This document shows positions 2,645-24,401 of a DNA stretch of 26,936 nt, in pieces. Within the stretch, counting starts at the first letter, position 1; each line of letters opens with the position of its first letter. The stretch is taken from the IMG/VR virus record IMGVR_UViG_2660238215_000003; one strand, given 5' to 3'. A program made the translations under genes and the position numbers. The notes beneath the pieces were generated by a model. It was given only the letters and a program-made list of their open reading frames with translations. It ran no database searches and was not told the DNA's origin. Origin of the DNA: a virus. Lineage: Duplodnaviria; Heunggongvirae; Uroviricota; Caudoviricetes.

Positions 2645-2848
2645 ATGTACCGTATGGACAAAATCAGAGAATGGTTCAGTTACAGCTTCGGAGGACTGAC
2701 TGCGATGGGTGGCATTCTCTCCCTGAATGACTGGGCTGTCATCATTGGTATTCTTTGTACTGTCGGCACATTTGGCATCAACTGGTACTACAAGCGCAAA
2801 GAGCGCGAGGACAGATTGAATGGCAATGTCACCGGCACTACGAAATAG
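2645..2848 (+). CDS. Holin (small two-TM lysis protein, phage 21 S-like pinholin class) with dual-start motif
   Basis: 67 aa; begins MYRMDK with two in-frame ATGs (2645 and 2654) separated by a basic residue, the classic antiholin/holin dual start; hydrophobic segments [12 protein letters not shown] and [14 protein letters not shown]; charged C-terminus; overlaps the endolysin start. Confidence 0.75.
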
Positions 2849-3323
2849 CGTAATAGCGGCGATAAGTGGCGGGGCTATTGCTATAGCATCTGTGTTAATC
2901 ACTGGACCGAGTGGTAACGATGGTCTGGAAGGTGTCAGCTACATACCATACAAAGATATTGTTGGTGTATGGACTGTATGTCACGGACACACCGGAAAAG
3001 ACATCATGCTCGGTAAAACGTATACCGAAGCAGAATGCAAAGCCCTCCTGAATAAAGACCTTGCCACGGTCGCCAGACAAATTAACCCGTACATCAAAGT
3101 CGATATACCGGAAACAACGCGCGGCGCTCTTTACTCATTCGTTTACAACGTGGGTGCTGGCAATTTCAGAACATCGACGCTTCTGCGCAAAATCAACCAG
3201 GGCGATATCAAAGGCGCATGTGATCAGCTACGTCGCTGGACATACGCTGGCGGTAAGCAATGGAAAGGTCTGATGACTCGTCGTGAGATTGAGCGTGAAG
3301 TCTGTTTGTGGGGGCAACAATGA
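2820..3323 (+). CDS. SAR endolysin (phage lysozyme with N-terminal signal-anchor-release domain; phage 21 R / P1 Lyz type)
   Basis: GAGGA SD; N-terminal Gly/Ala-rich weakly hydrophobic segment [16 protein letters not shown]; catalytic E-x8-D-x5-T arrangement in [17 protein letters not shown]; position immediately after the holin. Confidence 0.9.
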
Positions 3324-3415
3324 GCATGATTTGCTTTTTCATGGCAGCGTTGCTCGCATTCAATGGCAACGATGCGTGGCCGTGGTTTCTGGCCGTTGGA
3401 GTGTTGATGTCATGA
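3320..3415 (+). CDS. Possible 31-aa hydrophobic peptide between endolysin and Rz ([31 protein letters not shown])
   Basis: ATG overlaps the endolysin TGA (ATGA at 3320-3323) and its TGA overlaps the Rz ATG (ATGA at 3412-3415); G-rich SD-like run upstream. Too short for the ORF track; speculative. Confidence 0.3.
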
Positions 3416-3873
3416 GTCGGTTAACCGCGATTATCTCCGCTCTGGTTATCTGCATCATCGTCTGCCTGTCATGGGCTGTTAATCATTACCGTGATAACGC
3501 AATCGCCTACAAAGAGCAGCGCGATAACAAGGCCAGTGAACTGGAGAAGGCGAACGCCACCATTACTGACATGCAGCAGCGCCAGCGTGATGCTGATGCA
3601 CTCGATGCTAAATACACCGGAGAACTAGCTGATGCGAAAAAGCAGCTTGATGATCTGCAGCGTTGTGTTCGCACTGGCAAGTGTGGGCTGCACTTCAATG
3701 CCCGATGTCCAGCGAGCGGAAAGACCGGCACCGGCAGCTTGGGCGATGCTTCCAGCCCCGGACTTACTGACTCCGCTGAACGGGATTATTTCACCCTCAG
3801 AGAGCGAATCGTCACAGTGACGAAGCAGGTCGGCTACTTGCAGGACTACATCAAAGAGCAGTGTTCAAATTAG
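3412..3873 (+). CDS. Rz: Rz, inner-membrane spanin component (i-spanin)
   Basis: Starts [23 protein letters not shown] (N-terminal TM), followed by a coiled-coil-like charged region; lies after the endolysin and contains an embedded +1-frame lipoprotein ORF. The upstream extension to 3283 in the ORF track overlaps the endolysin and is not hydrophobic. Confidence 0.8.
3632..3820 (+). CDS. Rz1: Rz1, outer-membrane lipoprotein spanin (o-spanin), embedded in Rz in another frame
   Basis: Signal peptide ending in lipobox-like ASVGC followed by TS, then a Pro-rich region and C-terminal [11 protein letters not shown], matching the lambda Rz1 pattern; GGAGA SD; fully contained in Rz. Confidence 0.75.
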
Positions 3874-4952: not shown

Positions 4953-5504
4953 ATGGCACTCACCGACAAACAAGAGATGTTCTGTCGCGAGTACCTCATC
5001 GATTTAAACGCCACGCAAGCGGCTATTCGGGCGGGGTACAGCGCAAAGACAGCTAACCGTACCGCATCCGAAAACCTGTCAAAACCTGACATCAAGTTAA
5101 GAATCGCCGAACTGAAAGCGCAACGCAATGATCTTGTTGGTATTAATGCAGGATATGTACTTAATCGCCTTATTGAAATCGACCAGATGGATGTGCTCGA
5201 CATTCTCCTGCAAAACGGTGAGCTAAAGCCCATTAAAGACTGGCCTAAGGTATGGCGCACAACGCTATCAGGAATGGATGTCGTGGAGATGGCATCCGCA
5301 GATAGCGCCGCACTTCTGAAGAAAATCAAATGGCCTGATAAGGTTAAAAACCTTGAGTTGCTCGGGCGTCATGTTTCTGTTCAGGCGTTTAAAGACAATG
5401 TCAAAAATGAAGTGACTGGTGCTGACGGAGGACCAGTCAGAACAGAAATTACCAACTTAACGCCGGAGCAGGTTGCAGAAGCGTATAGAAAAATGATGGG
5501 CTAA
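4953..5504 (+). CDS. Terminase small subunit (P27/Terminase_2-type)
   Basis: N-terminus [30 protein letters not shown] is typical of this small-terminase family; immediately precedes the large terminase. Confidence 0.85.
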
Positions 5505-5508
5505 GAGT

Positions 5509-7131
5509 ATGCCGTTACCATTCCCCTTCGATTTTAAACATCCTGATTACCAGATGGTTTTTGAATGGCGGATGGAACGCCTACAGCGCATTCGCCAGAA
5601 TCCTGAAATATTGCCTGCACTAAAACAGTTTTACCGAACCAATCCGGCTCAGTTCATCATCGACTGGGGCATGACAACGGACCCGCGTAATATTGATTAT
5701 GGCCTGCCGGTGACCATTCCGTTTTTACTCTTCCCTAAGCAGGAGGAGTGGATCCACTGGATTATGGAACGCTGGAGCAATCGGGAGAATGGTATTACCG
5801 AAAAATCCCGTGAAATGGGGCTCAGTTGGACCGCGATCGGACTGGCATGCTCGCTTTGTCTCTTCAACAAAGAAATGGTTATCGGTTTTGGCTCCCGTAA
5901 AGAGGAATACGTCGACAGCACTGGTGACCCGAAAGCATTGTTCTGGAAGGCGCGCAAGTTCGTGGAAACGCTACCTGTAGAGTTTCGCGGTTCGTGGAGT
6001 GAGAAGAAGCACGCGCCATATATGCGTGTTGAGTTTCCTGAAACTGGTGCCGTTATCAAAGGCGAGGCTGGCGATAATATTGGTCGTGGTGACCGTACCA
6101 CGCTTTATCTGGTTGATGAGGCTGCATTCCTTCAGCGTCCTCTGCTGATTGATGCGGCGTTGTCACAAACGACGCGTTGCCGTATCGACCTGAGTTCAGT
6201 TAACGGCATGGCTAACCCGTTCGCTCAGAAGCGTCATGGCGGGAAGATACCGGTATTCACATTCCACTGGCGGGATGATCCTCGCAAGGATGAAGAGTGG
6301 TATCGCAGGGAATGCGAGAAAATCGATAATCCGGTGGTGGTGGCACAGGAACTTGATCTGAACTACAGCGCATCAGCGGAAGGCGTCCTGATTCCATCCG
6401 AATGGGTACAGGCTGCCGTTGATGCGCATATCAAACTGGGTATCCAGCCAACAGGCAAACGACTTGGCGCGATGGATGTCGCCGACGAAGGCAGGGACAA
6501 AAATGCCTTTTCCACCCGTCATGGCTTCCTCCTGGAAAATGTGCGGGAATGGTCCGGTGTGGGCAGCGACATTTATCAGTCCGTCGAGAAGATTTTCGGC
6601 TTTTGCGAACAGGATAACCTCGAAGAGTTTCGCTTTGACGAGGACGGACTGGGCGCTGGAGTTCGCGGCGATGCACGCGCTATCAACGAACTGCGTAACG
6701 CTGCGCGTCGACCGTCAATACTCGCCACACCGTTTCGAGGTAGTGGCGCGGTATTTGATCCGGATGATGAAGCTGTTCGCGGGGACAACGGGCAAGCCGC
6801 ACGTCTGAACAAGGACTTCTTCGCTAACGCCAAAGCCCAGAGCTGGTGGCGGTTACGTAAACTTTTTCAGAATACCTGGCGCGCCGTGGTTGAAGGTATG
6901 GCTTACAACCCGGACGAAATCATCTCAATCAGCAGTAGCATGGCACTCAAAGATAAACTCATCATCGAGCTTTCGCAGCCGACCTATTCCATTAATGGTG
7001 TGGGAAAAATCGTTATTGATAAACAGCCTGATGGAACCCGGTCGCCAAACCTTGCCGACTCGGTGATGATCAACTATGCCCCAATGAATTCAGCCCTGAA
7101 CATCTGGGAGTTGCTAGGGAGACAGGCCTGA
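5509..7131 (+). CDS. Terminase large subunit
   Basis: 540 aa, follows the small subunit after a 4-nt gap; ATPase-like N-terminal half and acidic nuclease-like C-terminal half; its stop overlaps the portal start (TGATG). Confidence 0.85.
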
Positions 7132-8597
7132 TGGCACGAAACAAACAAGCCCTGCGGCGAACTGCGCAGGCCACAGCCGATGGTTATGAGAATTTTATTG
7201 CCCGCGTAGGGATGCAGACACCTAACCAGCACTCAGCATCCACCTACCGGGCTAATTTTACCAGTCGTAACCGCATGCTGGTGGAATGGTCCTATCGTTC
7301 GTCCTGGATTATCGGCGAAGCGGTCGATGCTATCCCGGATGATATGACCCGCAAAGGCATTCGCATCACTTCGGAAATTGATGCAAAAGATCGCGGCATT
7401 CTCGAATCACAACTGGATGAGTTGCAAATCTGGGATGCACTGAACGACGTGCTGAAATGGTCGCGCCTCTATGGCGGCGCGGTGGGTTTCATCATGATTG
7501 AGGGGCAGGCACCAATGACCCCTCTGCGACCCGAAACCATCGGTAAAGGCAAGTTTAAGGGGATTCTCCCGCTCGACCGCTGGATGATTGACCCGGTACT
7601 GACCCGCCGCATTAAAGATATGGGGCCGGACCTGGGTAAACCTGAGTTTTACGATGTGGTGACCACAGCAACGGGAATTCCTGCCTGGCGCATTCATCAC
7701 AGTCGACTGATTCGCTTTGATGGCGTCACGCTGCCATTTCAGCAGAAGATGACCGAGAACGAATGGGGAATGTCGGTTGTAGAGCGTATCTGGGATCGTC
7801 TTACCGCGTTCGACAGCGCTACTGTCGGCGCGGCGCAACTGGTCTACAAAGCGCATTTGCGCACCTACAGCGTGGAGAAGCTACGCGAGCTTATCGCACT
7901 TGGTGGTCCTGCGTATGAAGCGTTGCTGAAGAATATTGACCTGATTCGACAGTTCCAGAGCAATGAAGGCATGACGCTCATGGACTCGCGGGATAAGTTT
8001 GAAACTCATCAGTACAGCTTCAGTGGTCTGGATGACATCCTTTCACAGTTTGCAGAACAGATTAGTGGCGCTGTTGGTATCCCACTGGTGCGGTTGTTCG
8101 GACAGTCCCCGAAAGGATTTTCTACCGGTGATGCAGACCTTGCCAACTATTACGACCGCATCAGTTCGTTGCAGGAGAGACGTTTACGTCTTCCGGTGCG
8201 GCGGATACTGGACATCATGCATCGTTCGGAACTTGGCAAGCCGCTCCCGGATGATTTCACGTTTGAGTTTAACCCGCTCTGGCAAATGTCTGATGTCGAT
8301 CGTTCAACGGTGGCGTTAAACACCACCAACGCAATCAGTACAGCGCTGGGTGATGGCCTGATGACACTGAAAGCCGCTATGACTGATTTGCGCGAAAATT
8401 CTGACGTAACCGGCATCGGGGCATCCATTACCGACGAGGACATCGAGAATGCCGAAGATGAAGCGCCGCCCGGCATCGGCGAACCTGATGACGAACCGCA
8501 GGAACCGTCAGGCGGAAATCCGCTATCGAACCAGCCTACGCAGGATAGCGCGGGGGGTCGGAGACATCGTAAATGGTCGCTACGATGGTTCAAATGA
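7131..8597 (+). CDS. Portal protein
   Basis: 488 aa directly after the large terminase; acidic C-terminal tail (DEDIENAEDEAPPGIGEPDDEPQEP) typical of portal proteins. Confidence 0.8.
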   Translation: MARNKQALRRTAQATADGYENFIARVGMQTPNQHSASTYRANFTSRNRMLVEWSYRSSWIIGEAVDAIPDDMTRKGIRITSEIDAKDRGILESQLDELQIWDALNDVLKWSRLYGGAVGFIMIEGQAPMTPLRPETIGKGKFKGILPLDRWMIDPVLTRRIKDMGPDLGKPEFYDVVTTATGIPAWRIHHSRLIRFDGVTLPFQQKMTENEWGMSVVERIWDRLTAFDSATVGAAQLVYKAHLRTYSVEKLRELIALGGPAYEALLKNIDLIRQFQSNEGMTLMDSRDKFETHQYSFSGLDDILSQFAEQISGAVGIPLVRLFGQSPKGFSTGDADLANYYDRISSLQERRLRLPVRRILDIMHRSELGKPLPDDFTFEFNPLWQMSDVDRSTVALNTTNAISTALGDGLMTLKAAMTDLRENSDVTGIGASITDEDIENAEDEAPPGIGEPDDEPQEPSGGNPLSNQPTQDSAGGRRHRKWSLRWFK

Positions 8598-9222
8598 CAG
8601 TATCACGGAAATTATTGAGGCGCTGGAACGCTACAGTGAAATCATCACCCCCTGGGCGACAAAGGTCGCGGAAAACTTTACTGCGGACCTAACCCGGCAG
8701 AACGAGAAAGTTTGGCGGCAACACAGCAAGAACATCAGTCGCGAGCTCCGCAATCTTGTGGAAAGCGCTCCTGTGGGCCAGGTGATGCAATCCATCATCG
8801 CCGAACAGGTCAAGTACATCAAATCGCTCCCCCTCGAGGCGGCTGACAGGGTGTACGACATCCAGAATCGGGCGATAGAAGCTGTTGTGACCGGTGGGAG
8901 AGCAGAACATTTTGCTAAAGAAATAGCCGCATCGGGTGATATAGCAAAGTCCAGAGCTGACCTGATTGCCCGTACTGAACTTGGACGTGCAACCGGCGCG
9001 CTGGATCAGGCACGTGCGCTGTCAATTGGTTCGAATGGTTATATCTGGCGTACAGCCGAAGATGGTGATGTCAGGCATTCTCATCGGGAAATGGAAGGTA
9101 AATTTGTCGAATGGGGCAAACCTCCAACGCTTGATGGCATGACCGGTCACGCTGGCGAGCTCCCGAATTGTCGCTGTTATAAAGAAATCGTTTTTCCCTC
9201 CTCCCATTCTTATCCCGCCTGA
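8449..9222 (+). CDS. Head morphogenesis protein (Mu gpF / SPP1 gp7 family)
   Basis: C-terminal motifs YIWRTAEDGDVRHSHREMEGK and NCRCY typical of the F-like family; GAGGA SD 8 nt before the 8449 ATG. Start overlaps the portal 3' end by about 150 nt; alternative in-frame ATG at 8488. Confidence 0.8.
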   Translation: MPKMKRRPASANLMTNRRNRQAEIRYRTSLRRIARGVGDIVNGRYDGSNDSITEIIEALERYSEIITPWATKVAENFTADLTRQNEKVWRQHSKNISRELRNLVESAPVGQVMQSIIAEQVKYIKSLPLEAADRVYDIQNRAIEAVVTGGRAEHFAKEIAASGDIAKSRADLIARTELGRATGALDQARALSIGSNGYIWRTAEDGDVRHSHREMEGKFVEWGKPPTLDGMTGHAGELPNCRCYKEIVFPSSHSYPA

Positions 9223-9236
9223 ATCGCAGGTAACAC

Positions 9237-10457
9237 ATGAAATATTTTTTCAATACCCGGCTGGGGGAAACCCGCTATCAGCTGGCTGACGGCTCGTTGC
9301 TGTGCAAAGACGTGCCGATAGGACGAACAGGTAAGCAGCTCTATGGTGCTGATGACCTGCCAAAACTGAAACCCGATAAGTTCGGTGAAATAGTCGTCAC
9401 ACGTTCTCCTGAGCAGGTATTCCATCCGGCCACGCTTGCCTCATTCGAAGGGATGAGCATCACGATCCTGCATCCTGAAGATGAAAACGGGAATGTGCGG
9501 CTGGTAAATCCCGAGAACTGGAAAGAGCTTGCTGTCGGGCACCTCCAGAATGTCCGGCGCGGGACGGGTGAGCAGTCTGATTTGATGCTGGCTGACCTTA
9601 TCGTCAAAGACGAAAGCGCCATTCAGCTTATCGAAGATGGCCTGCGCGAAGTGTCGTGCGGCTATGACGCGGAGTATGAGCAGACCGAGCCAGGTAAAGC
9701 CGAGCAGGTCGATATTACTGGAAACCATGTGGCTCTTGTCCCTAAAGGCAGAGCCGGAAATCGTTGTGCAATTGGAGACAGAGACACAATGGCAAATCAA
9801 AAGAAAAGCTGGTGGAACCGCATGCGTGCAGCCATCAAGACAGGAGATGCCGACACCATGAACGAACTGGTGGAGTCGGCTCCCGCATCGGTTACAGGAG
9901 ATGAGGGGGATTTGCCGCAGGGCGTTAATCTCAACATCAACCTGTCCCCGCAGCAACCACTACCGGACAAAGCACCAGAGATGGGTGGAGGTCCAACCGG
10001 CGACAGTGATGATGACCTCAAAACATTACTGAAAGCCCTGCTGGCTAAGCTGGACGGAAATGCCACGGGCGATAACGACAATAAGCCTGACGATAATCCG
10101 ACCGGTGACGGCGAGGACGATGAAGAGGAAACCACGATTACTGGTGACTCAGCCTGGCGTGCTGAAGTTATCGTTCCGGGTATCGATCTGAGCCGTAAGA
10201 TGAAACCGACCGCGTTCAAACGCGAGGTTCTGTCTTCTGCTGACAAAACGTTGGTTCGCCAGATAGTCGGTGATGCGGATATCCGCAAATTGCCGAAACA
10301 ATCGGTCGACATGGCGTTTAATGCCGTGTCTGAGATTGCCAAAGGGCGAAACACCCGCGCCACCACCGGCGATGCACAGCGCCCAAACATGGGCATGACC
10401 AGTATCGCTTCCCTGAACAAACAAAACGCTGAATTCTGGGCAAACCGTAAAGGGTAA
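9237..10457 (+). CDS. DUF2213-like head protein, putative prohead protease/scaffold fusion
   Basis: 406 aa; globular N-terminal half followed by an acidic low-complexity C-terminal half (GDSDDDLKTLLKALLAKLDG..., DGEDDEEETT) as in scaffolding domains; position between the F-like protein and the capsid gene. Confidence 0.65.
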   Translation: MKYFFNTRLGETRYQLADGSLLCKDVPIGRTGKQLYGADDLPKLKPDKFGEIVVTRSPEQVFHPATLASFEGMSITILHPEDENGNVRLVNPENWKELAVGHLQNVRRGTGEQSDLMLADLIVKDESAIQLIEDGLREVSCGYDAEYEQTEPGKAEQVDITGNHVALVPKGRAGNRCAIGDRDTMANQKKSWWNRMRAAIKTGDADTMNELVESAPASVTGDEGDLPQGVNLNINLSPQQPLPDKAPEMGGGPTGDSDDDLKTLLKALLAKLDGNATGDNDNKPDDNPTGDGEDDEEETTITGDSAWRAEVIVPGIDLSRKMKPTAFKREVLSSADKTLVRQIVGDADIRKLPKQSVDMAFNAVSEIAKGRNTRATTGDAQRPNMGMTSIASLNKQNAEFWANRKG

Positions 10458-10460
10458 AAA

Positions 10461-10967
10461 ATGAATAATGTATTTCTGTACCGGATGCCTGTTGGCATTG
10501 CCGGGGCTGTCTCTCGCCCGCAGGACTTAACCGTCGAACCGGTGGTCCTTAAATCCGATAACGCCTTCGCTGCCTATGGGCTGGCTGGTAAATACGATGA
10601 TGACGGTTTTTTCGTGCCGCTGGCAGATGGTGATACCGCAGACAAGGTGAAGGGGATCTACGTGCGCCCTTATCCGACCACTTCGCAGCCGGACATGGTT
10701 CGCCAGGTGGGGAGTGGCAAGAACTTCCCGGGCGACGCCATGAAGCGTGGCTACGTGACCGTTAATCTCGGTTCTGATTTTGATGCCAGCACCATCAAAA
10801 AAGGCGACCCGGTATACGTTGTCGTCTCCACTGATGAATCCATCAAAGTGCCGCTGGGTGGATTCATGGCCACGTCAGTCAGTGGCAAAAACGTGGTGCT
10901 GACCAACGCTGAATTCACAGGTGCCGGTGATGCTGACGGCAATGCAGAAATTTCCTGGAAGATTTAA
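10461..10967 (+). CDS. Hypothetical head protein (possible decoration/cement protein)
   Basis: 168 aa ORF with AAGGG SD, immediately upstream of the major capsid gene. Confidence 0.55.
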   Translation: MNNVFLYRMPVGIAGAVSRPQDLTVEPVVLKSDNAFAAYGLAGKYDDDGFFVPLADGDTADKVKGIYVRPYPTTSQPDMVRQVGSGKNFPGDAMKRGYVTVNLGSDFDASTIKKGDPVYVVVSTDESIKVPLGGFMATSVSGKNVVLTNAEFTGAGDADGNAEISWKI

Positions 10968-16077: not shown

Positions 16078-16265
16078 CGTTTAACAGCCTGCCGGACGGG
16101 CTGTCCTACCTTCTCAATCCGGTTGACGCCGGGTTAATTCCTTATACAGCACTTAAAGATGGCTCTGTCGATTTGTACGACATTGCTCTCTTGAATGACC
16201 ATCTGGCGGTAAAAGCGGATAACCAGCGGCGCATTGAGAAATGGAGAGAGGATAATGAACGCTGA
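15625..16265 (+). CDS. Tail assembly chaperone -1 frameshift product (gpGT-like fusion), predicted
   Basis: Slippery heptamer T_TTT_TTG at 16026-16032 in the chaperone frame; the -1 frame is open from 15966 to a TGA at 16263-16265, extending across the chaperone stop into the start of the tape measure gene. Confidence 0.5.
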
Positions 16266-18243
16266 AACTATTAAAGATTTCCTCGTCTCGCTTGGCTTCA
16301 GTGTGGATGATGCAGGAGCGAAAAAGTTCGGTTCTGTCCTCTCCGGTACAACTGCAAATGTCATCAAAATGGGGCTGGCTGTTGAAGGATCTGCGCTGTC
16401 CGTGGTGGCCTTCACGGCTAAGATCGCCTCCGGTCTGGATAATCTCTACTGGGCGTCACAGCGCACCGGCGCGACGGTTCAGGGGATTCAGTCTATTGGC
16501 TATGCGGTTTCGCAGGTTGGCGGCAGCGTGGACGCTGCGCGCGGGTCACTGGAGAGCCTTGCCCGTTTTATCCGTAATAACCCCGGGGCTGAGGGATTTC
16601 TGAATCGTCTGGGGGTACAGACACGGGATGCCAGCGGTAACATGCGTGACATGGCCGCTATTTTTACAGGTGTAGGACAGAAGCTCAGCGGCATGCCGTA
16701 TTACCGGGCTAACCAGTATGCGCAGATGCTGGGCATTGACGAAAATACCCTTATGGCGATGCGCCGGGGTGTGGGTGGTTTCTCCGGGCAGTACAGCGCA
16801 ATGGCGAAAGCTATCGGCTTCAATGCTGACGAGGCGGCCAGAAGCTCCAACAAATTTATGACCTCCCTGCGTGAGTTTGGCGCGATGGCAGGCATGGCCC
16901 GTGACAAAATCGGCTCTAATCTTGCGGGTGGGCTTGCGGGTTCGCTGGACACTCTGCGCCGCCATATCCTGGACAACTTCCCGCGTATCGAGCAGACCCT
17001 GACGAAAGCCATAAAAGGCATTCTGGCGCTCGGGGATATTATCGGGCGGCTGTTCTTCAGACTGATTGAAGGAACATCAGGCCTCATCACCTGGTGGCAA
17101 TCGCTGGATAAGCAAACGCGGGAGCTCATCTCGCTGTTTGGCGCGCTGACGATTGCGCTGCGCATTCTGAACAGTACGTTCTGGATGTCGCCGATTGGCC
17201 TCATTACCGCGCTGGCGGCGGGGATTGCCCTTCTGTGGGAGGACTATCAGACCTGGAAGGAAGGCGGCGACAGCCTGATTGACTGGGGCAAGTGGAAGCC
17301 GGAGGTCGATGCCGCGCTGAAGATGGTTCGTGACCTGAAAGGGTCTGTTAATGAACTGGCGAAAGCGCTGGCGAAACTGCTCAATATTGACCCCAAATCA
17401 TGGTCCCTGAAGTGGGATTTCAGCAACTTCATCGACCAGATGGGCGAATTCAGCAAAATGCTGAACATGATCGCCGACCTGCTCAACGCTATCAAAGATG
17501 GCCGCTGGGCTGATGCAGTCAGCATCAGCAAACAGATACTTAATCAGGGCAGCGAAAATCCGTCAGCGATGCCGATGGTTACAGACAGCGCTAACAGTAC
17601 TGCCGACTGGATTAAAGAGCACTGGGGATTCGATCCTCGCAGCGTGGGCCGGACGGTACGCGGCTGGTTTGGTGATGATGAGCCGGAACAATATGCACAG
17701 GCTACGAAACGAGGAGAACGGAATAACAATCCGGGAAACCTTAATTTTGCTGGTCAGGCAGGGGCTTCTCTTGAACGCCCGGGCGGGCGATTTGCCAGAT
17801 TTGAAACTGCTTTTGATGGATTACGGGCTCTTGCTCGTCAGTTAATGTTGTACGCCGGACGTGGAATAAACAGCGTGGAGAAAATTATCTCTACCTGGGC
17901 ACCTGCGTCTGATAATAACAACACAACTGCGTATATCAGGGCTGTATCGCAACGACTGGGAGTGGATCCCCGGGCTACCCTGAATATGAGCGATCCGCAA
18001 ACCATGTCAGCATTGATGAGCAGTATTATCCAGCATGAAAATGGAAGAAATATCTATTCTCGAGAGCTGATTAATAAGGCTGCCGTGGCAGGAATTAGTG
18101 GCAAAGTGACAGAGGTTAACCAGCAAAATACTTACCACATTTACGGTGGCGGAGATCCGCACGCTGTCGGTAATGAGGTTGCACGTCGGCAACAGTCTGC
18201 AAATGCTCAGGTCATGCGAAGTAATCAGGTGAGGGTGGGTTAG
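16255..18243 (+). CDS. Tail tape measure protein
   Basis: Long ORF after the chaperone pair with hydrophobic central segments; ATG at 16255 with GGAGAGAGG SD (the ORF track starts at an upstream TTG, 16234). Confidence 0.8.
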   Translation: MNAETIKDFLVSLGFSVDDAGAKKFGSVLSGTTANVIKMGLAVEGSALSVVAFTAKIASGLDNLYWASQRTGATVQGIQSIGYAVSQVGGSVDAARGSLESLARFIRNNPGAEGFLNRLGVQTRDASGNMRDMAAIFTGVGQKLSGMPYYRANQYAQMLGIDENTLMAMRRGVGGFSGQYSAMAKAIGFNADEAARSSNKFMTSLREFGAMAGMARDKIGSNLAGGLAGSLDTLRRHILDNFPRIEQTLTKAIKGILALGDIIGRLFFRLIEGTSGLITWWQSLDKQTRELISLFGALTIALRILNSTFWMSPIGLITALAAGIALLWEDYQTWKEGGDSLIDWGKWKPEVDAALKMVRDLKGSVNELAKALAKLLNIDPKSWSLKWDFSNFIDQMGEFSKMLNMIADLLNAIKDGRWADAVSISKQILNQGSENPSAMPMVTDSANSTADWIKEHWGFDPRSVGRTVRGWFGDDEPEQYAQATKRGERNNNPGNLNFAGQAGASLERPGGRFARFETAFDGLRALARQLMLYAGRGINSVEKIISTWAPASDNNNTTAYIRAVSQRLGVDPRATLNMSDPQTMSALMSSIIQHENGRNIYSRELINKAAVAGISGKVTEVNQQNTYHIYGGGDPHAVGNEVARRQQSANAQVMRSNQVRVG

Positions 18244-18830
18244 TGGATATTCTCTCTACACTTTTTCATCAGCAGAGCAGAAAAATAGGAATGATTGTTC
18301 CCAGTGTTGTTATTTCAGAGAAGCATACAGATATGCTTGAAATAACAGAGCATCCGGTAGAGGTCGGGGCCGCTGTCGCTGATCATGCCTATAAAAAACC
18401 GTCAGAAGTGGTGATGGAGGTTGGTTTCGCCGGTGGCGGCGCATTGCTGGATTTTGCCAGTAATCTGACGGCTACCAGCCTGCTCGGCCTGAGTCCTCAG
18501 CAGACGTATCAGGAGCTACTGGATCTGCAGGAAAGCCGTATCCCCTTCGATGTGGTAACCGGTAAACGACTGTACAGCAACATGTTGATCCGGGCGCTGG
18601 AAGTGACGACGGACAAGACAACCGAAAACGTCCTGTCCGCCGTCCTCACCCTGAGGGAGGTCCTTATCTCCCGGACACAGCAGATTACCGTCGCGGATAA
18701 AACCAACATGAAGGAAGGGGCCAGCACGTCGGCGGTACAGAATAGCGGCAACAAAACCACAAAGCCTCCAGATACTTCACTGCTGAAAAGCATCACGGGT
18801 AACGTGGCGTCATTACTGGGAGGCGGCTAA
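18243..18830 (+). CDS. Hypothetical tail protein
   Basis: GTG start overlapping the tape measure stop (TAGTG); 195 aa; in the tail module. Confidence 0.55.
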   Translation: MDILSTLFHQQSRKIGMIVPSVVISEKHTDMLEITEHPVEVGAAVADHAYKKPSEVVMEVGFAGGGALLDFASNLTATSLLGLSPQQTYQELLDLQESRIPFDVVTGKRLYSNMLIRALEVTTDKTTENVLSAVLTLREVLISRTQQITVADKTNMKEGASTSAVQNSGNKTTKPPDTSLLKSITGNVASLLGGG

Positions 18831-19132
18831 TGACAATTCAGGAAATTCCGCTGACAGCGGACAACCAGCAGTTCAGCATCGTCCTGGGTGGTGTCACCTG
18901 GCGGATTAGCATCATATGGCGCGATCCTTACTGGATTATGGACCTGCAGAACGACAGAGGGGAGCCGGTAATCTCCGGTATTCCTCTCGTCACTGGCGCT
19001 GATCTGCTGGCGCAGTACGCCTGTATGGGACTTGGTTTTAAGCTGTTGGTGGTCTGCGATGACAACATACAGGATTATCCCACGAAAACTGACCTGGGCG
19101 GCCGCAGTCATTTACTGGTATCAACGGAGTAA
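18830..19132 (+). CDS. Hypothetical tail protein (100 aa)
   Basis: ATG overlapping the upstream stop (TAATG), GGAGG SD. Confidence 0.55.
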   Translation: MTIQEIPLTADNQQFSIVLGGVTWRISIIWRDPYWIMDLQNDRGEPVISGIPLVTGADLLAQYACMGLGFKLLVVCDDNIQDYPTKTDLGGRSHLLVSTE

Positions 19133-19134
19133 GC

Positions 19135-20199
19135 ATGTCACAGAACTGGATGAGACATTTCGAGCTGCAGCTTGTGGACGGGAACGGTCAGGGAATTGAG
19201 CTAAGTGATTTCAAAGTCACCTTTACGATCGACTGGTTCAACATCAGCAGCGCGTCCCGGGTAGGGACTATCAAAATTTATAACCTCTCGGCAGATACTG
19301 TGAACCGAATCACCGGGAAGGAATTTTCGAAAGTGCGGCTGATTGCCGGTTACGACGGTATCGCGCCGGAGGTGGCGGCAAGCGACGTCGGGACCGTGCG
19401 CGAAGTCGACGCGGCAGATGTGGGCCAGAGTGATGGCCGCAACTACGGGCTGATTTTCAGCGGAGAAATTCGCTACTCGGTCACAGGAAAAGACAGCCCT
19501 ATTGATTCCTATGTCCTGATTCAGGCAGCAGATACGGATCTGGCATTTGCCACCAGTATAACCTCACAGACGCTGGCTGCCGGTTACACGGTCGCTGATG
19601 TGAACCGTGCGCTGATGAAAGACTTCGAAGCCAAAGGCGCGACCGAAGGCCTGACGCCTGAAATGCCTGCTACTGTATTCCCCCGGGGGCGGGTGCTCTT
19701 TGGCATGACGCGGCATCTTATGGATAACGTAGCCGGGCAATGTGGCGCAACATGGCAATTCGTGGACGGTCAACGCCAGATGGTGGCGAATAACGAATAT
19801 GTTCATGAAGCGATTGTGCTCAACAGCGCCACCGGGCTTATCAGCATGCCGCAGCAGACTATCGGCAACGGCGTAAACGTCCGCGCGCTTATTAATCCGA
19901 ACATCCGGGTTAATGGGCTCATTCAACTGGATCAGGCTTCCGTATATCGCACCGCGTTGTCGAACAACGATATTGCGATGGCTGGTGGGCAGATCACCGA
20001 CCAGAACACGGACGGAAATATCACGCTAAGCGGCACCACAGCACAACCTGCCAGCATCGCAACGGATGGCGTTTATATTGTGCGCGGGATTATGTACACT
20101 GGCGATACAAGGGGCCAGGCGTGGTACATGGATATGATGTGCGAAGCGCGTGGCGCGGCGGATCTTCAAAGTCAAGGAGCAATGAATCGGTGGGGATAA
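19135..20199 (+). CDS. Tail/baseplate hub-like protein (Mu gpP-like position)
   Basis: 354 aa, GGAG SD; sits between tape measure-associated genes and the baseplate V-like gene. Confidence 0.55.
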   Translation: MSQNWMRHFELQLVDGNGQGIELSDFKVTFTIDWFNISSASRVGTIKIYNLSADTVNRITGKEFSKVRLIAGYDGIAPEVAASDVGTVREVDAADVGQSDGRNYGLIFSGEIRYSVTGKDSPIDSYVLIQAADTDLAFATSITSQTLAAGYTVADVNRALMKDFEAKGATEGLTPEMPATVFPRGRVLFGMTRHLMDNVAGQCGATWQFVDGQRQMVANNEYVHEAIVLNSATGLISMPQQTIGNGVNVRALINPNIRVNGLIQLDQASVYRTALSNNDIAMAGGQITDQNTDGNITLSGTTAQPASIATDGVYIVRGIMYTGDTRGQAWYMDMMCEARGAADLQSQGAMNRWG

Positions 20200-20201
20200 G
20201 A

Positions 20202-20666
20202 TTGAATAAGAAAGCCATTTTTATTGCAATAAGTTTACTTGTTCCGATGTCGGGATTAGCCGCTCCTGGGAAGTATGAAAAAATGGCTGTTGATTTAATG
20301 GATCAGCAAAAGTTTACGCAGTGGCAACATTACGCCTCTGCTACTCCTTTTTTCGCTATGAATGGTCGCAGATTCGCCATGACCATTGATGATTTCGCGG
20401 ATATAGTCAGCAACTCCTTTCAAGGATGCGAAGATCTGGATGCCTACACCAATCGGAAAGGAACTACGGATGATTGTAAGTCCTATGTTTACAAAGGCAT
20501 AAAGGAGTGGGTAAACCTCTCTCAAGATAAGTCTGTTAGCGATACAGCATGGAAAATGGGCCAGCGCTATGCCTTCAACACACGTAATCCTATTGCCCAT
20601 AAAAACGCATGGGATTTCAATGGGATGGCGGCCGGTATTCGCGTTGCTAAATCTCAAGGTTATTAA
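20202..20666 (+). CDS. Hypothetical secreted (signal-peptide) moron protein, TTG start predicted
   Basis: In-frame TTG at 20202 gives NKKAIFIAISLLVPMSGLAA-P: basic n-region, hydrophobic core, Ala-x-Ala-like cleavage context. The ORF track start at 20121 lies inside the upstream gene. AT-rich; no recognisable virion family. Confidence 0.5.
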   Translation: MNKKAIFIAISLLVPMSGLAAPGKYEKMAVDLMDQQKFTQWQHYASATPFFAMNGRRFAMTIDDFADIVSNSFQGCEDLDAYTNRKGTTDDCKSYVYKGIKEWVNLSQDKSVSDTAWKMGQRYAFNTRNPIAHKNAWDFNGMAAGIRVAKSQGY

Positions 20667-20872
20667 GTCATGGATGCGCCGAAAATCATCGGATCTTTCC
20701 CTTGTAAAAAAGTGGCTGGGTGAAGGTGACCTGAAATTCGTAACGCCTGAAAAACAACAAAATGTGCTCTAAAAACTGTTGTTTTTTGAGACGAGCGATT
20801 ACACTGCACTGACTTTTTGATGGTGGATTGCCATCGATATGCTACTTCATTAAAGCCAGGAATAACTAAAAC

Positions 20873-21604
20873 ATGAGTTTAGCGCAGCCAAAATCAGGAG
20901 AACTGTTAGATCTTCTGACTCCTTCATTAACTAAGGGTGAAAACCTTCTGAGTGAGTTTGAAATCCATCGAATCATTCGTGAAGCGAAGAAACTACCTGA
21001 ACGTTATCAGGGGCTATCAATTGAAGGCTTAGCTAAGCTTGTTCTTGGTGAAATAGATGAAGGATGTTCACTCTGTGAGCGGGGGTTGAGAATAGCGCCT
21101 AACGATCCAGTTTCTTTTTGTAACTATACGATTGCGCTGCGTAACTTAGGTTTGCATGCTCGCCAGTATGTGATGATTCAGAAAGCATCTGATTCACTTA
21201 ATCCAACGATATTGGCTGAGGTTGCTACAATTTCTGCATACTGGGTTGATATCGATTTGCTTGAAAAGGTGATGCCGATGCTAACTGCAATGGAAGTACC
21301 GCGCCCTGAAGATATGGGCAAATGGTATGACACGCTCAATTATCTGCATACCCAAAAAGATCATGCTCAGGAGCTAAAAACTATTGGGCGGCTCATGATG
21401 AACGTTGCAGAAAAGTACCGCGCTCGTCTTGCTGGCGCTCATGCTTTTTATGTAATGTCAGAACTTGATACGCTGTTCGTTGAAGTCAAAACAGACGATC
21501 CAGTGCTTCTTTCGCAGATGAATAATGCCTTGGCTGATGAGATTATTATTGCGGGGCTTGCGGATTCAGAATGCGTCGGATGCTTTGAAGCCGGGGAACT
21601 CTAA
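20873..21604 (+). CDS. Hypothetical protein, gene 1 of a two-gene accessory cassette (243 aa)
   Basis: ATG with AGGAA SD after a ~200 nt non-coding leader; AT-rich; stop overlaps the start of the next gene. Confidence 0.65.
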   Translation: MSLAQPKSGELLDLLTPSLTKGENLLSEFEIHRIIREAKKLPERYQGLSIEGLAKLVLGEIDEGCSLCERGLRIAPNDPVSFCNYTIALRNLGLHARQYVMIQKASDSLNPTILAEVATISAYWVDIDLLEKVMPMLTAMEVPRPEDMGKWYDTLNYLHTQKDHAQELKTIGRLMMNVAEKYRARLAGAHAFYVMSELDTLFVEVKTDDPVLLSQMNNALADEIIIAGLADSECVGCFEAGEL

Positions 21605-22032
21605 TGTCGGTTGAGCATACCTGTTTTCTTGAATTGGCTAAGCATTCCCTGGCTCTAAACGGTGAGATGTGGACGAGAAATGCTATTAGCCGAGCATACT
21701 ATGGTATGTACCATTCCGCCTTACGGATCACCAACAATCTGGTACCGACCGCTACACAAGATGGTGAAAAACTAAAAGGTGGAGTTCACATGCGAGTCTA
21801 TACGGCCTTTTGTAGTGGTGAGGCAGCTGCACTTAACGATGTTGATGTTAACGCAGTAAAGAAAATCGGCGTTAAACTGAAAATGACGCATGCCCAACGT
21901 GTTAATTCTGATTACAAGCTTGAGCGGAAAATCAACCGGATTACCGCGAGAAGTGTAATTCTGGATGCGGAAGAGGTCGATGCAATCGTTAATCAATTAC
22001 TGAAGATTGGTGATGACTCGTTAACTGCATAA
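21604..22032 (+). CDS. Hypothetical protein, gene 2 of the two-gene cassette (142 aa), possible HEPN-like helix
   Basis: ATG overlapping the upstream TAA (TAATG), GGGGA SD; N-terminal helix SRAYYGMYHSALR contains an R-x6-H arrangement; followed by a strong terminator. Confidence 0.65.
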   Translation: MSVEHTCFLELAKHSLALNGEMWTRNAISRAYYGMYHSALRITNNLVPTATQDGEKLKGGVHMRVYTAFCSGEAAALNDVDVNAVKKIGVKLKMTHAQRVNSDYKLERKINRITARSVILDAEEVDAIVNQLLKIGDDSLTA

Positions 22033-22053
22033 GCTGAAATTTCTCAAAATTCA

Positions 22054-22078
22054 AACCCGCCACTTGGCGGGTTTTTTG
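22054..22078 (+). terminator. Intrinsic terminator ending the two-gene cassette
   Basis: Stem AACCCGCC / GGCGGGTT with loop ACTT followed by TTTTTT. Confidence 0.8.
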
Positions 22079-22096: not shown

Positions 22097-22849
22097 ATGG
22101 CAGTATCTGACCAGACCCGCAGCGGCGACCTTGCCGAAACATTTAAATCTGAACGGGAAACAACAAAGAACCAGATCCGTGTCGCCTTGCCTGGCATTGT
22201 TCAGTCATTCGCTCCTGATGCGGTGACGGCGGTTGTACAGCCTGCTATCCGTTACGTTGAAATTGATAACGACGGCAACCGCATTACCAAAAATTACCCA
22301 TTGCTGGTGGATGTGCCAGTGGTATTCCCGCGTGGCGGAGGCTGTACGCTAACGTTTCCAGTTAAAGCCGGTGATGAATGTTTGGTGATTTTTGCCGATC
22401 GTTGTATTGATTTCTGGTGGCAGAGTGGCGGGATACAGGAGCCGGTCGATGACAGAATGCATGATTTATCGGATGCGTTTTGTATTGTCGGTCCCCAGTC
22501 GCAGGCAAGGAAGATTAGCGGTATTAATACCAGTGCCACACAGTTGCGTAGTGATGACGGCAGCACCTATTTTGAGCTTAATCCTGATACCAGGAAAATT
22601 AAAATTGTCGCTCCGGGGGGCCTTGATGTGGTTGCCCCTCTGGCTGATTTTTCTGAGAAAGTAACCATTCATGGCCTGTTAACCTGGATGGGAGGCATGG
22701 TGGGGTCTGTTGTTTCTGGTGTGGCTTCAAAAATCACTGGTGCTGTTGAGTTTTTGGGTAGCGTGAAGGCTAACGGCAAGCCAATCGATGATACGCACAC
22801 TCATGGTGGTGTTCAGCGCGGTGGAAGCAATACCGACGGAGTAAACTGA
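22097..22849 (+). CDS. Baseplate assembly protein V-like (spike/hub)
   Basis: 250 aa, GGAG SD; followed by W-, J- and I-like genes in P2/Mu order. Confidence 0.7.
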   Translation: MAVSDQTRSGDLAETFKSERETTKNQIRVALPGIVQSFAPDAVTAVVQPAIRYVEIDNDGNRITKNYPLLVDVPVVFPRGGGCTLTFPVKAGDECLVIFADRCIDFWWQSGGIQEPVDDRMHDLSDAFCIVGPQSQARKISGINTSATQLRSDDGSTYFELNPDTRKIKIVAPGGLDVVAPLADFSEKVTIHGLLTWMGGMVGSVVSGVASKITGAVEFLGSVKANGKPIDDTHTHGGVQRGGSNTDGVN

Positions 22850-23202
22850 TGCGATACAGACGTGAAGACGCCGATGGCGATTACACCTTTGGCAGCGGTG
22901 ATGACACCTGGCTGATTAACTCGCCTGAGGCCGTAGCGCAGGCTGTGAAAACGCGATTCGAATTGTGGTATGGGCAATGGTTTCTTGATACCACAGAGGG
23001 AACACCGTGGATCCAGTCCGTGCTGGGCAGGCAAAAACCAGAAACTTACAACCTGGCGATCCGTAAGCGCATCCTCGAAACGCAGGGCGTTAAATCAATC
23101 CTCTCTTTCAATACGACGGTGGATACCACGACCCGACGTGTCATGTTTTCCGCTGAAATCGACACTCTCTATGGAATAACGACTGTTACATCGGAGGCGT
23201 AA
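22849..23202 (+). CDS. Baseplate wedge protein, gpW/gp25-like
   Basis: 117 aa, size and position between the V-like and J-like genes; start overlaps the upstream stop. Confidence 0.65.
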   Translation: MRYRREDADGDYTFGSGDDTWLINSPEAVAQAVKTRFELWYGQWFLDTTEGTPWIQSVLGRQKPETYNLAIRKRILETQGVKSILSFNTTVDTTTRRVMFSAEIDTLYGITTVTSEA

Positions 23203-24401
23203 TGGCTCTGAACCTTGATTCTCTCGGTTTATCTGCAAAGGTAACCGCGGAGGGGATCAGTGCGCCTGATTATCAGACGATACTCAGCACCCTGATTAGC
23301 TATTTTCAGCAGATTTATGGCAGTGATGCCTACCTCGAACCGGACAGCAAAGACGGCCAGATGGTGGCTCTGATGGCGCTGGCGATTCATGATGCCAATA
23401 ATATGGCGATAACTGTCTACAACTGTTTTTCACCGGCAACCGGCTATGGGGCTGCACTGACCAGTAACGTGAAAATAAATGGTATTTCACGTAAAGGCGC
23501 GACGAACTCTACGGTTGATTTGCTTCTTACAGGAACTGCCGGAACAACCATCATTAATGGCAGCGTGAAAGACAGTAATAATGTGATATGGCGTTTGCCT
23601 GCTTCAGTGGTGGTCGGCGTGGATGGTACAGTGATGGCGACCGCAACATGTTCCGTCAGTGGTGCAGTGGCGGCGCTGGCTGGAACTATCACTGAAATTA
23701 ATACGCCAACCCGTGGCTGGGTTTCGGTAACTAATCCTGCTGCGGCTACTGTTGGCTCTCCGGCAGAAACTGATGCTGAGTTACGTATCCGCCAGTCGCA
23801 AAGTGTTGCGTTGCCATCAATAACCCCATTTGAAGCACTGGATGGTGCTGTTTCTAATGTTACCGGTGTAACCCGCCACAAACTCTATGAAAACGATACT
23901 GGTTCGGAGGACGGTAACGGGTTACCGCCACACTCTGTTGCTGTAATTGTGGATGGCGGTGATGTGACGGATATTGCTCAGGCTATCAGAGGGAATAAAG
24001 GCCAGGGGACAGCCACTCACGGTACAACATCCGTTACGGTTCCGGATAAATACGGCAATCCCCATGTAATCAAATTCTCGCGTTCCAGTGATGTACCTGT
24101 TTATGCCCGGATTAAATTAAAAGTTTTTACGGGTTATACCTCACAGATAGGGCAGCAGATCCAGCAGGCTATTTCCGACTATATCAATAGTCTGATGATT
24201 GGTGATTCGGTCCTTTTAAGTCGCATTTACTCACCGGCGAATCTTGGCGTGGTGAGTGGCGGGAATGCACGCTATTACGATATTCAGGAACTGACGATTG
24301 GGAAATCCCCGGGGGCTTTGTCGTCATCAAACATTGATATCAGATACAACGAATCTGCGTCCTGTACACCGGAAAATATCGTTATAACGGTGGAGTCATG
24401 A
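23202..24401 (+). CDS. Baseplate J-like protein
   Basis: 399 aa, GGAGG SD, position after the gpW-like gene. Confidence 0.7.
   Translation: MALNLDSLGLSAKVTAEGISAPDYQTILSTLISYFQQIYGSDAYLEPDSKDGQMVALMALAIHDANNMAITVYNCFSPATGYGAALTSNVKINGISRKGATNSTVDLLLTGTAGTTIINGSVKDSNNVIWRLPASVVVGVDGTVMATATCSVSGAVAALAGTITEINTPTRGWVSVTNPAAATVGSPAETDAELRIRQSQSVALPSITPFEALDGAVSNVTGVTRHKLYENDTGSEDGNGLPPHSVAVIVDGGDVTDIAQAIRGNKGQGTATHGTTSVTVPDKYGNPHVIKFSRSSDVPVYARIKLKVFTGYTSQIGQQIQQAISDYINSLMIGDSVLLSRIYSPANLGVVSGGNARYYDIQELTIGKSPGALSSSNIDIRYNESASCTPENIVITVES

Follow-up and report, generated by a model that had tools for sequence, protein, structure and literature searches.

Why does a gene for an apparently exported protein, opened by a TTG codon, stand directly behind the hub gene of a phage tail? 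The question arises at positions 20202-20666 of IMG/VR record IMGVR_UViG_2660238215_000003, a 26,936-nucleotide stretch of tailed-phage DNA that is referred to here as the window. The open reading frame (ORF) at this position is a real gene, and its 154-amino acid product is very probably an exported, periplasmic cargo protein whose non-ATG start is coupled to the hub gene. New here is the setting of the gene, a hub-adjacent slot that codes for an exported protein in every one of 110 related prophage loci. A literature search found no study of the 154-amino acid family or of the slot.

The hub gene (19135-20199, plus strand) ends with a TAA stop codon at 20197-20199, and the TTG at 20202-20204 lies 2 bases 3' of it. 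The sequence, the RefSeq annotation and the homologous loci define a plus-strand coding sequence of 154 codons from this TTG to a TAA at 20664-20666. Its translation opens MNKKAIFIAISLLVPMSGLAAPGKYE, and the in-frame ATG at 20247-20249 is codon 16, which falls within the hydrophobic core of the signal peptide. An earlier, sequence-only reading had described this arrangement of hub stop, TTG frame and internal ATG, and each element was confirmed in the sequence. The NCBI pipeline assigns the same TTG start to the protein of an identical prophage in RefSeq (WP_134892694.1). A Shine-Dalgarno-like GGGGA, read from the sequence at 20192-20196 (plus strand), precedes the TTG by 5 nucleotides and lies inside the last hub codons. 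One gene caller (P0001) chose an alternative in-frame GTG at 20190, 4 codons upstream of the TTG, which has a stronger AAGGAG (20174-20179) 10 nucleotides ahead of it. Use of the GTG would add 4 residues and leave the signal peptide unaffected. Translation initiates at TTG 20202, or possibly at GTG 20190.

The start was compared across 16 distinct loci from Escherichia, Klebsiella, Trabulsiella, Hafnia phage yong1 and metagenomic phages, with 23 IMG/VR contigs included. The start codon lies between -8 and +3 nucleotides relative to the hub stop in all 16 loci; 15 of these loci use TTG or GTG, and the remaining one uses ATG. At the homologous loci the conserved start is preceded, at a distance of 3-8 nucleotides, by a G-rich motif that again falls inside the last hub codons. 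These comparisons, together with the RefSeq TTG, bear out the non-ATG start that had been proposed from the window alone. Translation from ATG 20247 or from a codon further downstream would instead give a cytoplasmic protein, as modeled for yong1 gp67. ATG is the usual start codon and an internal ATG was picked by the yong1 annotators, but ATG 20247 is not conserved, the frame upstream of it is open and hydrophobic in 16 of 16 loci, the G-rich motif precedes the non-ATG start and RefSeq places the start at the TTG. The Klebsiella locus has no start codon of any kind upstream of its TTG and a first in-frame ATG at codon 33, inside the conserved domain. A downstream ATG start is thus hardly credible. 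The yong1 gene (L030, NC_073022; 4501-4965) has a homologous GTG start that shares bases with the hub stop (GTGA). Translation from it brings back a signal peptide, whereas gp67 as deposited begins at an internal ATG, is 136 amino acids long and has lost that signal peptide. The deposited gp67 start is therefore probably wrong. Non-ATG starts coupled to a preceding stop hide signal peptides, as in gp67, and exported phage cargo is therefore under-called.

Codon comparisons establish that the frame is maintained as protein. At 60-80% nucleotide identity, the mature part differs at 43-59 codons synonymously vs 13-59 amino acid changes; synonymous sites are saturated and amino acid divergence is 0.06-0.35. 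Saturated synonymous sites with low amino acid divergence indicate a protein under strong purifying selection. One metagenomic copy of the gene (L018, 6001-6461) is 98% identical and frameshifted, and is an apparent pseudogene.

The predicted signal peptide comprises codons 1-20 (MNKKAIFIAISLLVPMSGLA; 20202-20261, plus strand), with cleavage after Ala20 placed by rules and conservation. The Sec/signal peptidase I pattern was scored as a positively charged n-region, an h-region of about 7-15 residues, small residues at -1 and -3, and no proline at +1. The window protein has Lys3 and Lys4 in the n-region, the 12-residue h-region AIFIAISLLVPM, and Gly18-Leu19-Ala20 followed by Ala21, so that the N-terminus reads MNKKAIFIAISLLVPMSGLA|APGK at the predicted site and the rule-based call is positive. 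The pattern is complete for the TTG and GTG starts alike, in line with the signal peptide that had been recognized by eye. Cleavage before Pro22, which that recognition implied, is unlikely. Signal peptidase I rejects substrates with proline at +1, and cleavage is placed after Ala20 rather than Ala21 because Pro22 would otherwise stand at +1. Across 15 family members Ala20 is nearly invariant and position -3 is always small (Gly, Ala, Ser, Cys, Thr or Val). The first ~20 residues of these proteins are variable yet hydrophobic, and strong conservation starts right after the small-x-Ala site. A crude hydrophobicity and charge test marked 2 of 35 window genes as signal peptide-like, the 154-amino acid ORF with the top score and an endolysin of the signal-anchor-release (SAR) type. 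No lipobox ([LVI][ASTVI][GAS]C) was found, and the part ahead of residue 76 is free of cysteine in the window protein and in its 14 close homologues.

The hub-to-spike interval was surveyed in 110 related prophage loci with a hub homologue. The gap measures 528-1935 bp and is never empty, and the first ORF at the hub stop bears a signal peptide in every locus (64 distinct proteins). The occupants belong to two unrelated superfamilies in three forms, which were counted in the 80 loci seeded with the hub alone. A family of 104-118 amino acids (phrog_3443) fills 66 of the 80, the 154-amino acid family 8, and a 241-amino acid lipoprotein 6. The phrog_3443 proteins are unrelated to the 154-amino acid family (hhalign probability 7%). 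The 241-amino acid lipoprotein is a divergent member of the 154-amino acid domain family, detected with a broadened hidden Markov model (E 2e-7, a modest 22.9 bits) across both cysteines and the SKDKxI motif; hhalign with the narrow profile failed to detect it. An LTSC lipobox is present in one alternative slot occupant.

Alignment with the Escherichia coli A15 prophage defines how the slot is filled. A15 and the window are identical as far as ~20167, a point within the last 11 hub codons, become unrelated there and are identical once more from ~20669. The A15 counterpart is an unrelated 117-amino acid gene, likewise begun on the hub stop and likewise encoding a signal peptide. The A15 breakpoints delimit an exchangeable cassette (20167-20669, plus strand) composed of the last ~11 hub codons and the entire 154-amino acid gene. 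Hub C-terminal tails vary with the slot family. Such alignments indicate that slot occupants are exchanged by recombination between the 3' end of the hub gene and a conserved 50-nucleotide right flank. The 154-amino acid gene is rare in the species, occurring in 9 of 5426 complete E. coli genomes, while the flanking phage DNA occurs in 307. Its GC content is 43.0%, vs 54.6% for the hub and 50.1% for the spike, which confirms the A/T-rich character that had been noted. Unrelated slot genes swap among prophages whose hubs are 96-100% identical, and one spike allele cluster (at least 97% identity) with nearly the same hub was seen with all three slot forms. Co-variation of the slot gene with the spike was considered and ruled out by that pairing. 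The occupants change as a unit, a cassette whose exchange follows neither the hub nor the spike nor a two-gene cassette downstream, and the 154-amino acid gene is cargo, as the low GC content and the replacement by unrelated genes attest.

The exchange data bear directly on a structural role, in which the product would be a virion or tail assembly component with an uncleaved hydrophobic N-terminus, for example one stored in the hub and ejected into the membrane. Its position between hub and spike, its coupling to the hub and a slot that is always filled in the clade fit such a component. The h-region is just 12 residues and leads into a conserved small-x-Ala site, and the LTSC lipobox of an alternative occupant indicates true export. 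Phages that share a spike allele and have hubs of 96-100% identity carry unrelated families interchangeably in the slot, related phages exist without any such gene, and all of the standard parts of a simple baseplate are present in the window besides the 154-amino acid gene. A virion component is very improbable on this evidence.

The right-hand boundary of the cassette is a 17-codon mini-ORF (MDAPKIIGSFPCKKVAG*; 20670-20723, plus strand) that begins three bases after the stop of the 154-amino acid gene and is identical to the C-terminus of the 104-118-amino acid slot family. An intact mini-ORF follows the gene in 13 of 16 distinct loci across genera, the most divergent ones included; among the exceptions are a longer remnant in one locus and a frameshift in another. 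It lies 3-101 nucleotides after the stop and occurs in all three frames relative to the gene, depending on the locus. Stop-codon readthrough that appends the mini-ORF to the 154-amino acid protein was ruled out on the basis of these three frames. The mini-ORF may be a homologous right-hand anchor for cassette exchange that is refreshed by recombination with intact genes, or alternatively it may be a translated micropeptide.

A weak A/T-rich hairpin with a T-run had been reported downstream of the gene. It is present (~20747-20790, plus strand; -14.1 kcal/mol, z = -2.4) about 80 nucleotides after the gene and below the criteria of the terminator scan, and it is conserved in A15. It lies in the flank that is shared with the other slot gene and probably does not belong to the 154-amino acid gene. 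The only good terminator in the scan is a strong one at 22053-22074, after the two-gene cassette (20873-21604 and 21604-22032). The cassette genes match phrog_22649 and phrog_5176, have 44% GC and give weak TPR_17 and HEPN_IX matches; they could be a cytoplasmic defense or toxin-antitoxin-like pair. A three-gene island comprising these genes and the 154-amino acid gene had been suggested. The same two-gene cassette stands unchanged beside the 117-amino acid first gene in many E. coli prophages, and the 154-amino acid gene is followed by quite different downstream genes in Klebsiella and Hafnia. The first gene is thus a separate module and the island does not hold.

The protein itself has no named relatives. 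The mature domain of ~134 residues (20262-20663, plus strand), defined by the alignment and an AlphaFold model, contains three short strands, four to five helices and the C-terminal motif DFNGxAAGIRVAKSxGY. The alignment identifies invariant cysteines at positions 76 (20427-20429, plus strand) and 92 (20475-20477, plus strand), which fit with a periplasmic disulfide. AlphaFold2 with a 15-sequence alignment gave a confident, mainly helical model with a predicted local distance difference test score (pLDDT) of 84.7 and a predicted template modeling score (pTM) of 0.76. The N-terminal helix, which is the signal peptide segment, is of low confidence and stands apart from the domain. The model resembled no solved structure in structure searches, and the sequence matched nothing in Pfam or NCBIfam (E <= 0.1), PHROGs, the PADLOC-DB defense profiles (E <= 0.1) or the PDB sequences. 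Profiles of the known periplasmic lysozyme inhibitors in Pfam and NCBIfam (Ivy, MliC/PliC, PliG, PliI and LprI; E <= 0.1) were likewise unmatched. The suggestions of exclusion, enzyme inhibition and lysogenic conversion that accompanied the first description of the gene each find no homology evidence.

The family is small and confined to mobile elements of Enterobacterales. A protein search returned 15 clusters, all from Enterobacterales and all unnamed, and an exhaustive profile search of 1.84 billion representative proteins returned 25 relatives only, all annotated as hypothetical. Hafnia phage yong1 carries the only homologue among isolated phages, a scan of a genome collection gave a single locus in Trabulsiella, and a plasmid collection had no match to the relative P0035. 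Relatives of 290-374 amino acids have a signal peptide or lipobox, an N-terminal domain and then the 154-amino acid-type domain at the C-terminus. Others of about 210-224 amino acids have a signal peptide, the domain and a coiled coil, and one is fused to Sel1 repeats. Family marks are the signal peptide or lipobox, an NGRxF strand, two cysteines ~16 residues apart, S-K-D-K-x-[IV]-S and F-x-[GH]-W-x-G-x-R-V, and the sequences of the window protein and the 25 representatives bear the family motifs.

Distant relatives occupy comparable positions elsewhere. A 183-amino acid relative is the sole gene between hub and spike in another prophage, and Providencia prophages with the tail type of the window have a 341-amino acid lipoprotein relative in the gap from plug to hub. 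Relatives of 331-356 amino acids are found in the cargo positions of P4-like satellites with an integrase and a Toprim/DUF927 primase. In four such loci (L031-L034; E. coli, Citrobacter and others) the gene at 7001-8071 encodes a 356-amino acid lipoprotein with a C-terminal domain of the 154-amino acid type. The P4-like element sits after a Pa193_gp24-like head gene in host prophages that are 86-88% identical to window positions 5747-10488, and in L032 a TumE/HVO_A0114 toxin-antitoxin-like pair lies beside the lipoprotein gene.

The Providencia-type prophages (L120-L130) have their cargo hotspot between plug and hub, not after the hub. This gap holds an exported protein in 7 of 11 loci, proteins without a signal peptide in 2 and nothing in 2, and L125 and L127 have no exported protein near the hub. 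Loci of this type without an exported protein imply that the tail can be built without one, and such genes are therefore accessory. The hotspot contents are DUF4431, an OB-fold-like protein, lipoproteins, a RelE-like pair, or nothing. An LprI-type inhibitor, considered for one of these alternative cargo proteins by its cysteine motif, was ruled out when Pfam gave DUF4431.

Expression was judged from the anatomy of the region. A consensus scan, which does not reach weak or non-consensus sites, found no sigma-70-like promoter upstream of the 154-amino acid gene, and the only promoter-like match on the plus strand lies inside the ORF (20379-20407). A separate moron had been one of two options suggested here. 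The gene has the deviant GC content and the presence/absence pattern among related phages that are expected of morons but not the promoter of its own for expression from a repressed prophage (PMC3594210), and at every locus its start keeps its place at the hub stop. Since a Q antiterminator of the lambdoid late-control type lies upstream (968-1456) and the start is fixed in this way, the simplest reading is that the gene is expressed along with the late tail genes. The sequence layout indicates that the gene should not be a classic self-promoted moron and should be coupled to the Q-dependent late operon.

Phage-encoded exported or membrane proteins, some of them in tail gene clusters, block phage entry in HK97 (gp15; PMC3594210), T4 (Spackle; PMC7677548) and T5 (Llp; PMC9586334). 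The favored explanation places the slot gene among them. The Q-antiterminated late transcript would serve for the hub and the slot gene alike, with translation of the slot gene coupled to that of the hub. The product would be exported through Sec and cleaved after Ala20, and a soluble mature protein of ~134 residues with one stabilizing disulfide would be released to the periplasm. There, in a cell that carries or produces the phage, it would act on the envelope to block the entry of other phages, which is superinfection exclusion. A closely related option is that it would keep progeny from being wasted on the envelope. We assign this explanation as a whole a probability of about 0.5. Exclusion specifically is a tentative assignment that falls somewhat short of an even chance. 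Protection against the entry of other phages is favored because the occupants are interchangeable, diverse, accessory and exported, and because the domain is also satellite cargo.

Several points weigh against this explanation. Timing is its main weakness. Exclusion genes of the classic kind are active in the repressed prophage or soon after infection begins, and if expression came from the late operon only, no protection of the lysogen would be possible. The same spike allele occurs with all three slot forms, and there is thus no sign of co-evolution with the tail tip. The lysin domain of the tape measure also varies independently of the slot gene. Lastly, the short, cleavable Sec-type signal peptide is a prediction from rules and conservation.

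The timing problem makes a helper role in the phage's own late period a serious rival. A late exported protein could modify or mask an envelope component and so spare new virions from being triggered or trapped by receptors and envelope fragments at lysis, or it could tune the timing of envelope breakdown. Coupling to a late hub gene without a promoter of its own fits this role, as does a slot filled in 110 of 110 loci of the clade, which is expected of a function that the phage itself wants, and T5 Llp has such a double role (PMC9586334). Three interchangeable forms drawn from two unrelated superfamilies argue against one fixed mechanistic helper, and L125 and L127 in the related Providencia-type clade manage without an exported protein near the hub. 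The window also has a complete holin, endolysin and Rz cassette elsewhere. A helper role is accordingly rated as rather unlikely. Assignment of the slot gene as a lysis spanin was ruled out by the full cassette at 2645-3873.

A function unrelated to phages was also weighed, in which the protein is a lysogenic-conversion or fitness factor of the bacterium that confers stress or serum resistance or immunity to a competitor's periplasm-acting toxin. The upstream scan gave no promoter for expression in the lysogen, and family members keep to a single type of phage tail module, always beside the hub, a restriction that a host fitness factor of general use would not need. Fold matches do not rise above the noise level of helical bundles. 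This function is judged unlikely.

One specific version of superinfection exclusion would be Spackle-like, with the protein inhibiting, in the periplasm, the cell wall-degrading enzyme of incoming tails. The tape measures of this phage group often have an SLT lytic transglycosylase domain that could be such a target. T4 Spackle is small, mainly helical, disulfide-bonded and periplasmic (PMC7677548), and the window model is mainly helical with two invariant cysteines. The window tape measure (16234-18243) has no SLT domain, unlike its homologues in L004, L118 and yong1, and the 154-amino acid gene co-occurs with SLT-bearing and SLT-lacking tape measures alike. Spackle was not among the matches listed in either structure search, and no known lysozyme inhibitor family was matched in Pfam. 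A Spackle-like inhibitor is therefore quite improbable. The C-terminal part of the window tape measure is a different domain (..NNNPGNLNF..), and this replacement of the SLT domain means that the tail-tip enzyme module is itself swapped.

A broader proposal can be built on the favored explanation. The hub-adjacent position would be a dedicated, translationally coupled slot for exported proteins whose occupants, soluble and lipoprotein forms from two unrelated superfamilies, set exclusion types in a widespread group of enterobacterial myovirus prophages and block, in the periplasm, genome delivery by phages of the same tail type. P4-like satellites residing in or alongside these phages would have taken the domain for the same purpose, and the conserved 17-codon mini-ORF would be the right-hand recombination anchor for cassette exchange. 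We regard the combined proposal as doubtful. If exclusion is correct, the 154-amino acid family and its slot-mates would be unrecognized periplasmic entry blockers. Superinfection exclusion is well known as a phenomenon, but only a handful of the proteins behind it are understood, and the examples known so far are mostly membrane proteins or lipoproteins. The prophage group that carries the slot is common in E. coli, Klebsiella, Salmonella and their relatives, and such blockers would affect which phages, therapeutic ones included, infect these strains.

The remaining genes place the slot in a conventional phage. The window is an Escherichia coli prophage and matches the OkiPb01713 chromosome at 100% over the 2 kb tested. 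The prophage is a lambdoid-regulated myovirus type. The Q antiterminator gene is followed by a gene for an endonuclease with HNH and AP2 domains (1679-2191), located between it and the holin. The lysis cassette consists of the holin (2645-2848), the endolysin (2820-3323), which has a hydrophobic N-terminus of the SAR type, and Rz (3283-3873). The terminase small subunit (4953-5504) leads into the head genes and then the contractile tail, which is of the E217/phiTE/Pam3 type. The baseplate genes encode a Dit-like protein (18243-18830), the plug (18830-19132), the hub, which matches PF22759 (E217_GP41) and phrog_196, the spike with a Gp138-type N-domain and an apex motif (22097-22849), the sheath initiator (22849-23202) and baseplate J (23202-24401).

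Comparison with known systems begins with the other occupant of the slot. Proteins of the phrog_3443 family (104-118 amino acids; SEN34, Mulock, vB_EcoM-606R2 and related phages) share the slot, the coupling to the hub stop, the signal peptide and two cysteines with the 154-amino acid family, and differ in being unrelated in sequence and much commoner. Cor genes are located in tail gene regions. Cor of phi80, N15 and HK022 and Llp of T5 are exported phage proteins that alter the envelope (PMC9586334, PMC3594210), as is proposed for the window protein. They are outer-membrane lipoproteins with a lipobox, whereas residues 1-75 of the window protein include no cysteine, and only the 241-amino acid occupant and some of the larger relatives take the lipoprotein form. 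T4 Spackle (gp61.3), the tail lysozyme inhibitor (PMC7677548), is a counterpart in being a small, mainly helical, phage-encoded protein with a signal peptide and a disulfide, periplasmic as the window protein would be. Spackle is the product of an early gene and has 75 residues when mature, and the window tail has neither a gp5-type lysozyme nor an SLT domain in its tape measure. HK97 gp15, the founding moron, acts in superinfection exclusion (PMC3594210) and is an inner-membrane protein expressed from the repressed prophage by its own promoter and terminator. The window gene differs from it in the cleavable signal peptide, the soluble domain, the absence of a detectable promoter, the coupling to the hub stop and the absence of sequence similarity. 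The two genes are alike in that each is a small accessory gene among tail genes, has a GC content unlike that of its neighbors and is absent or replaced in close relatives, and the action on phage entry at the envelope that is known for gp15 is the one proposed for the window protein.
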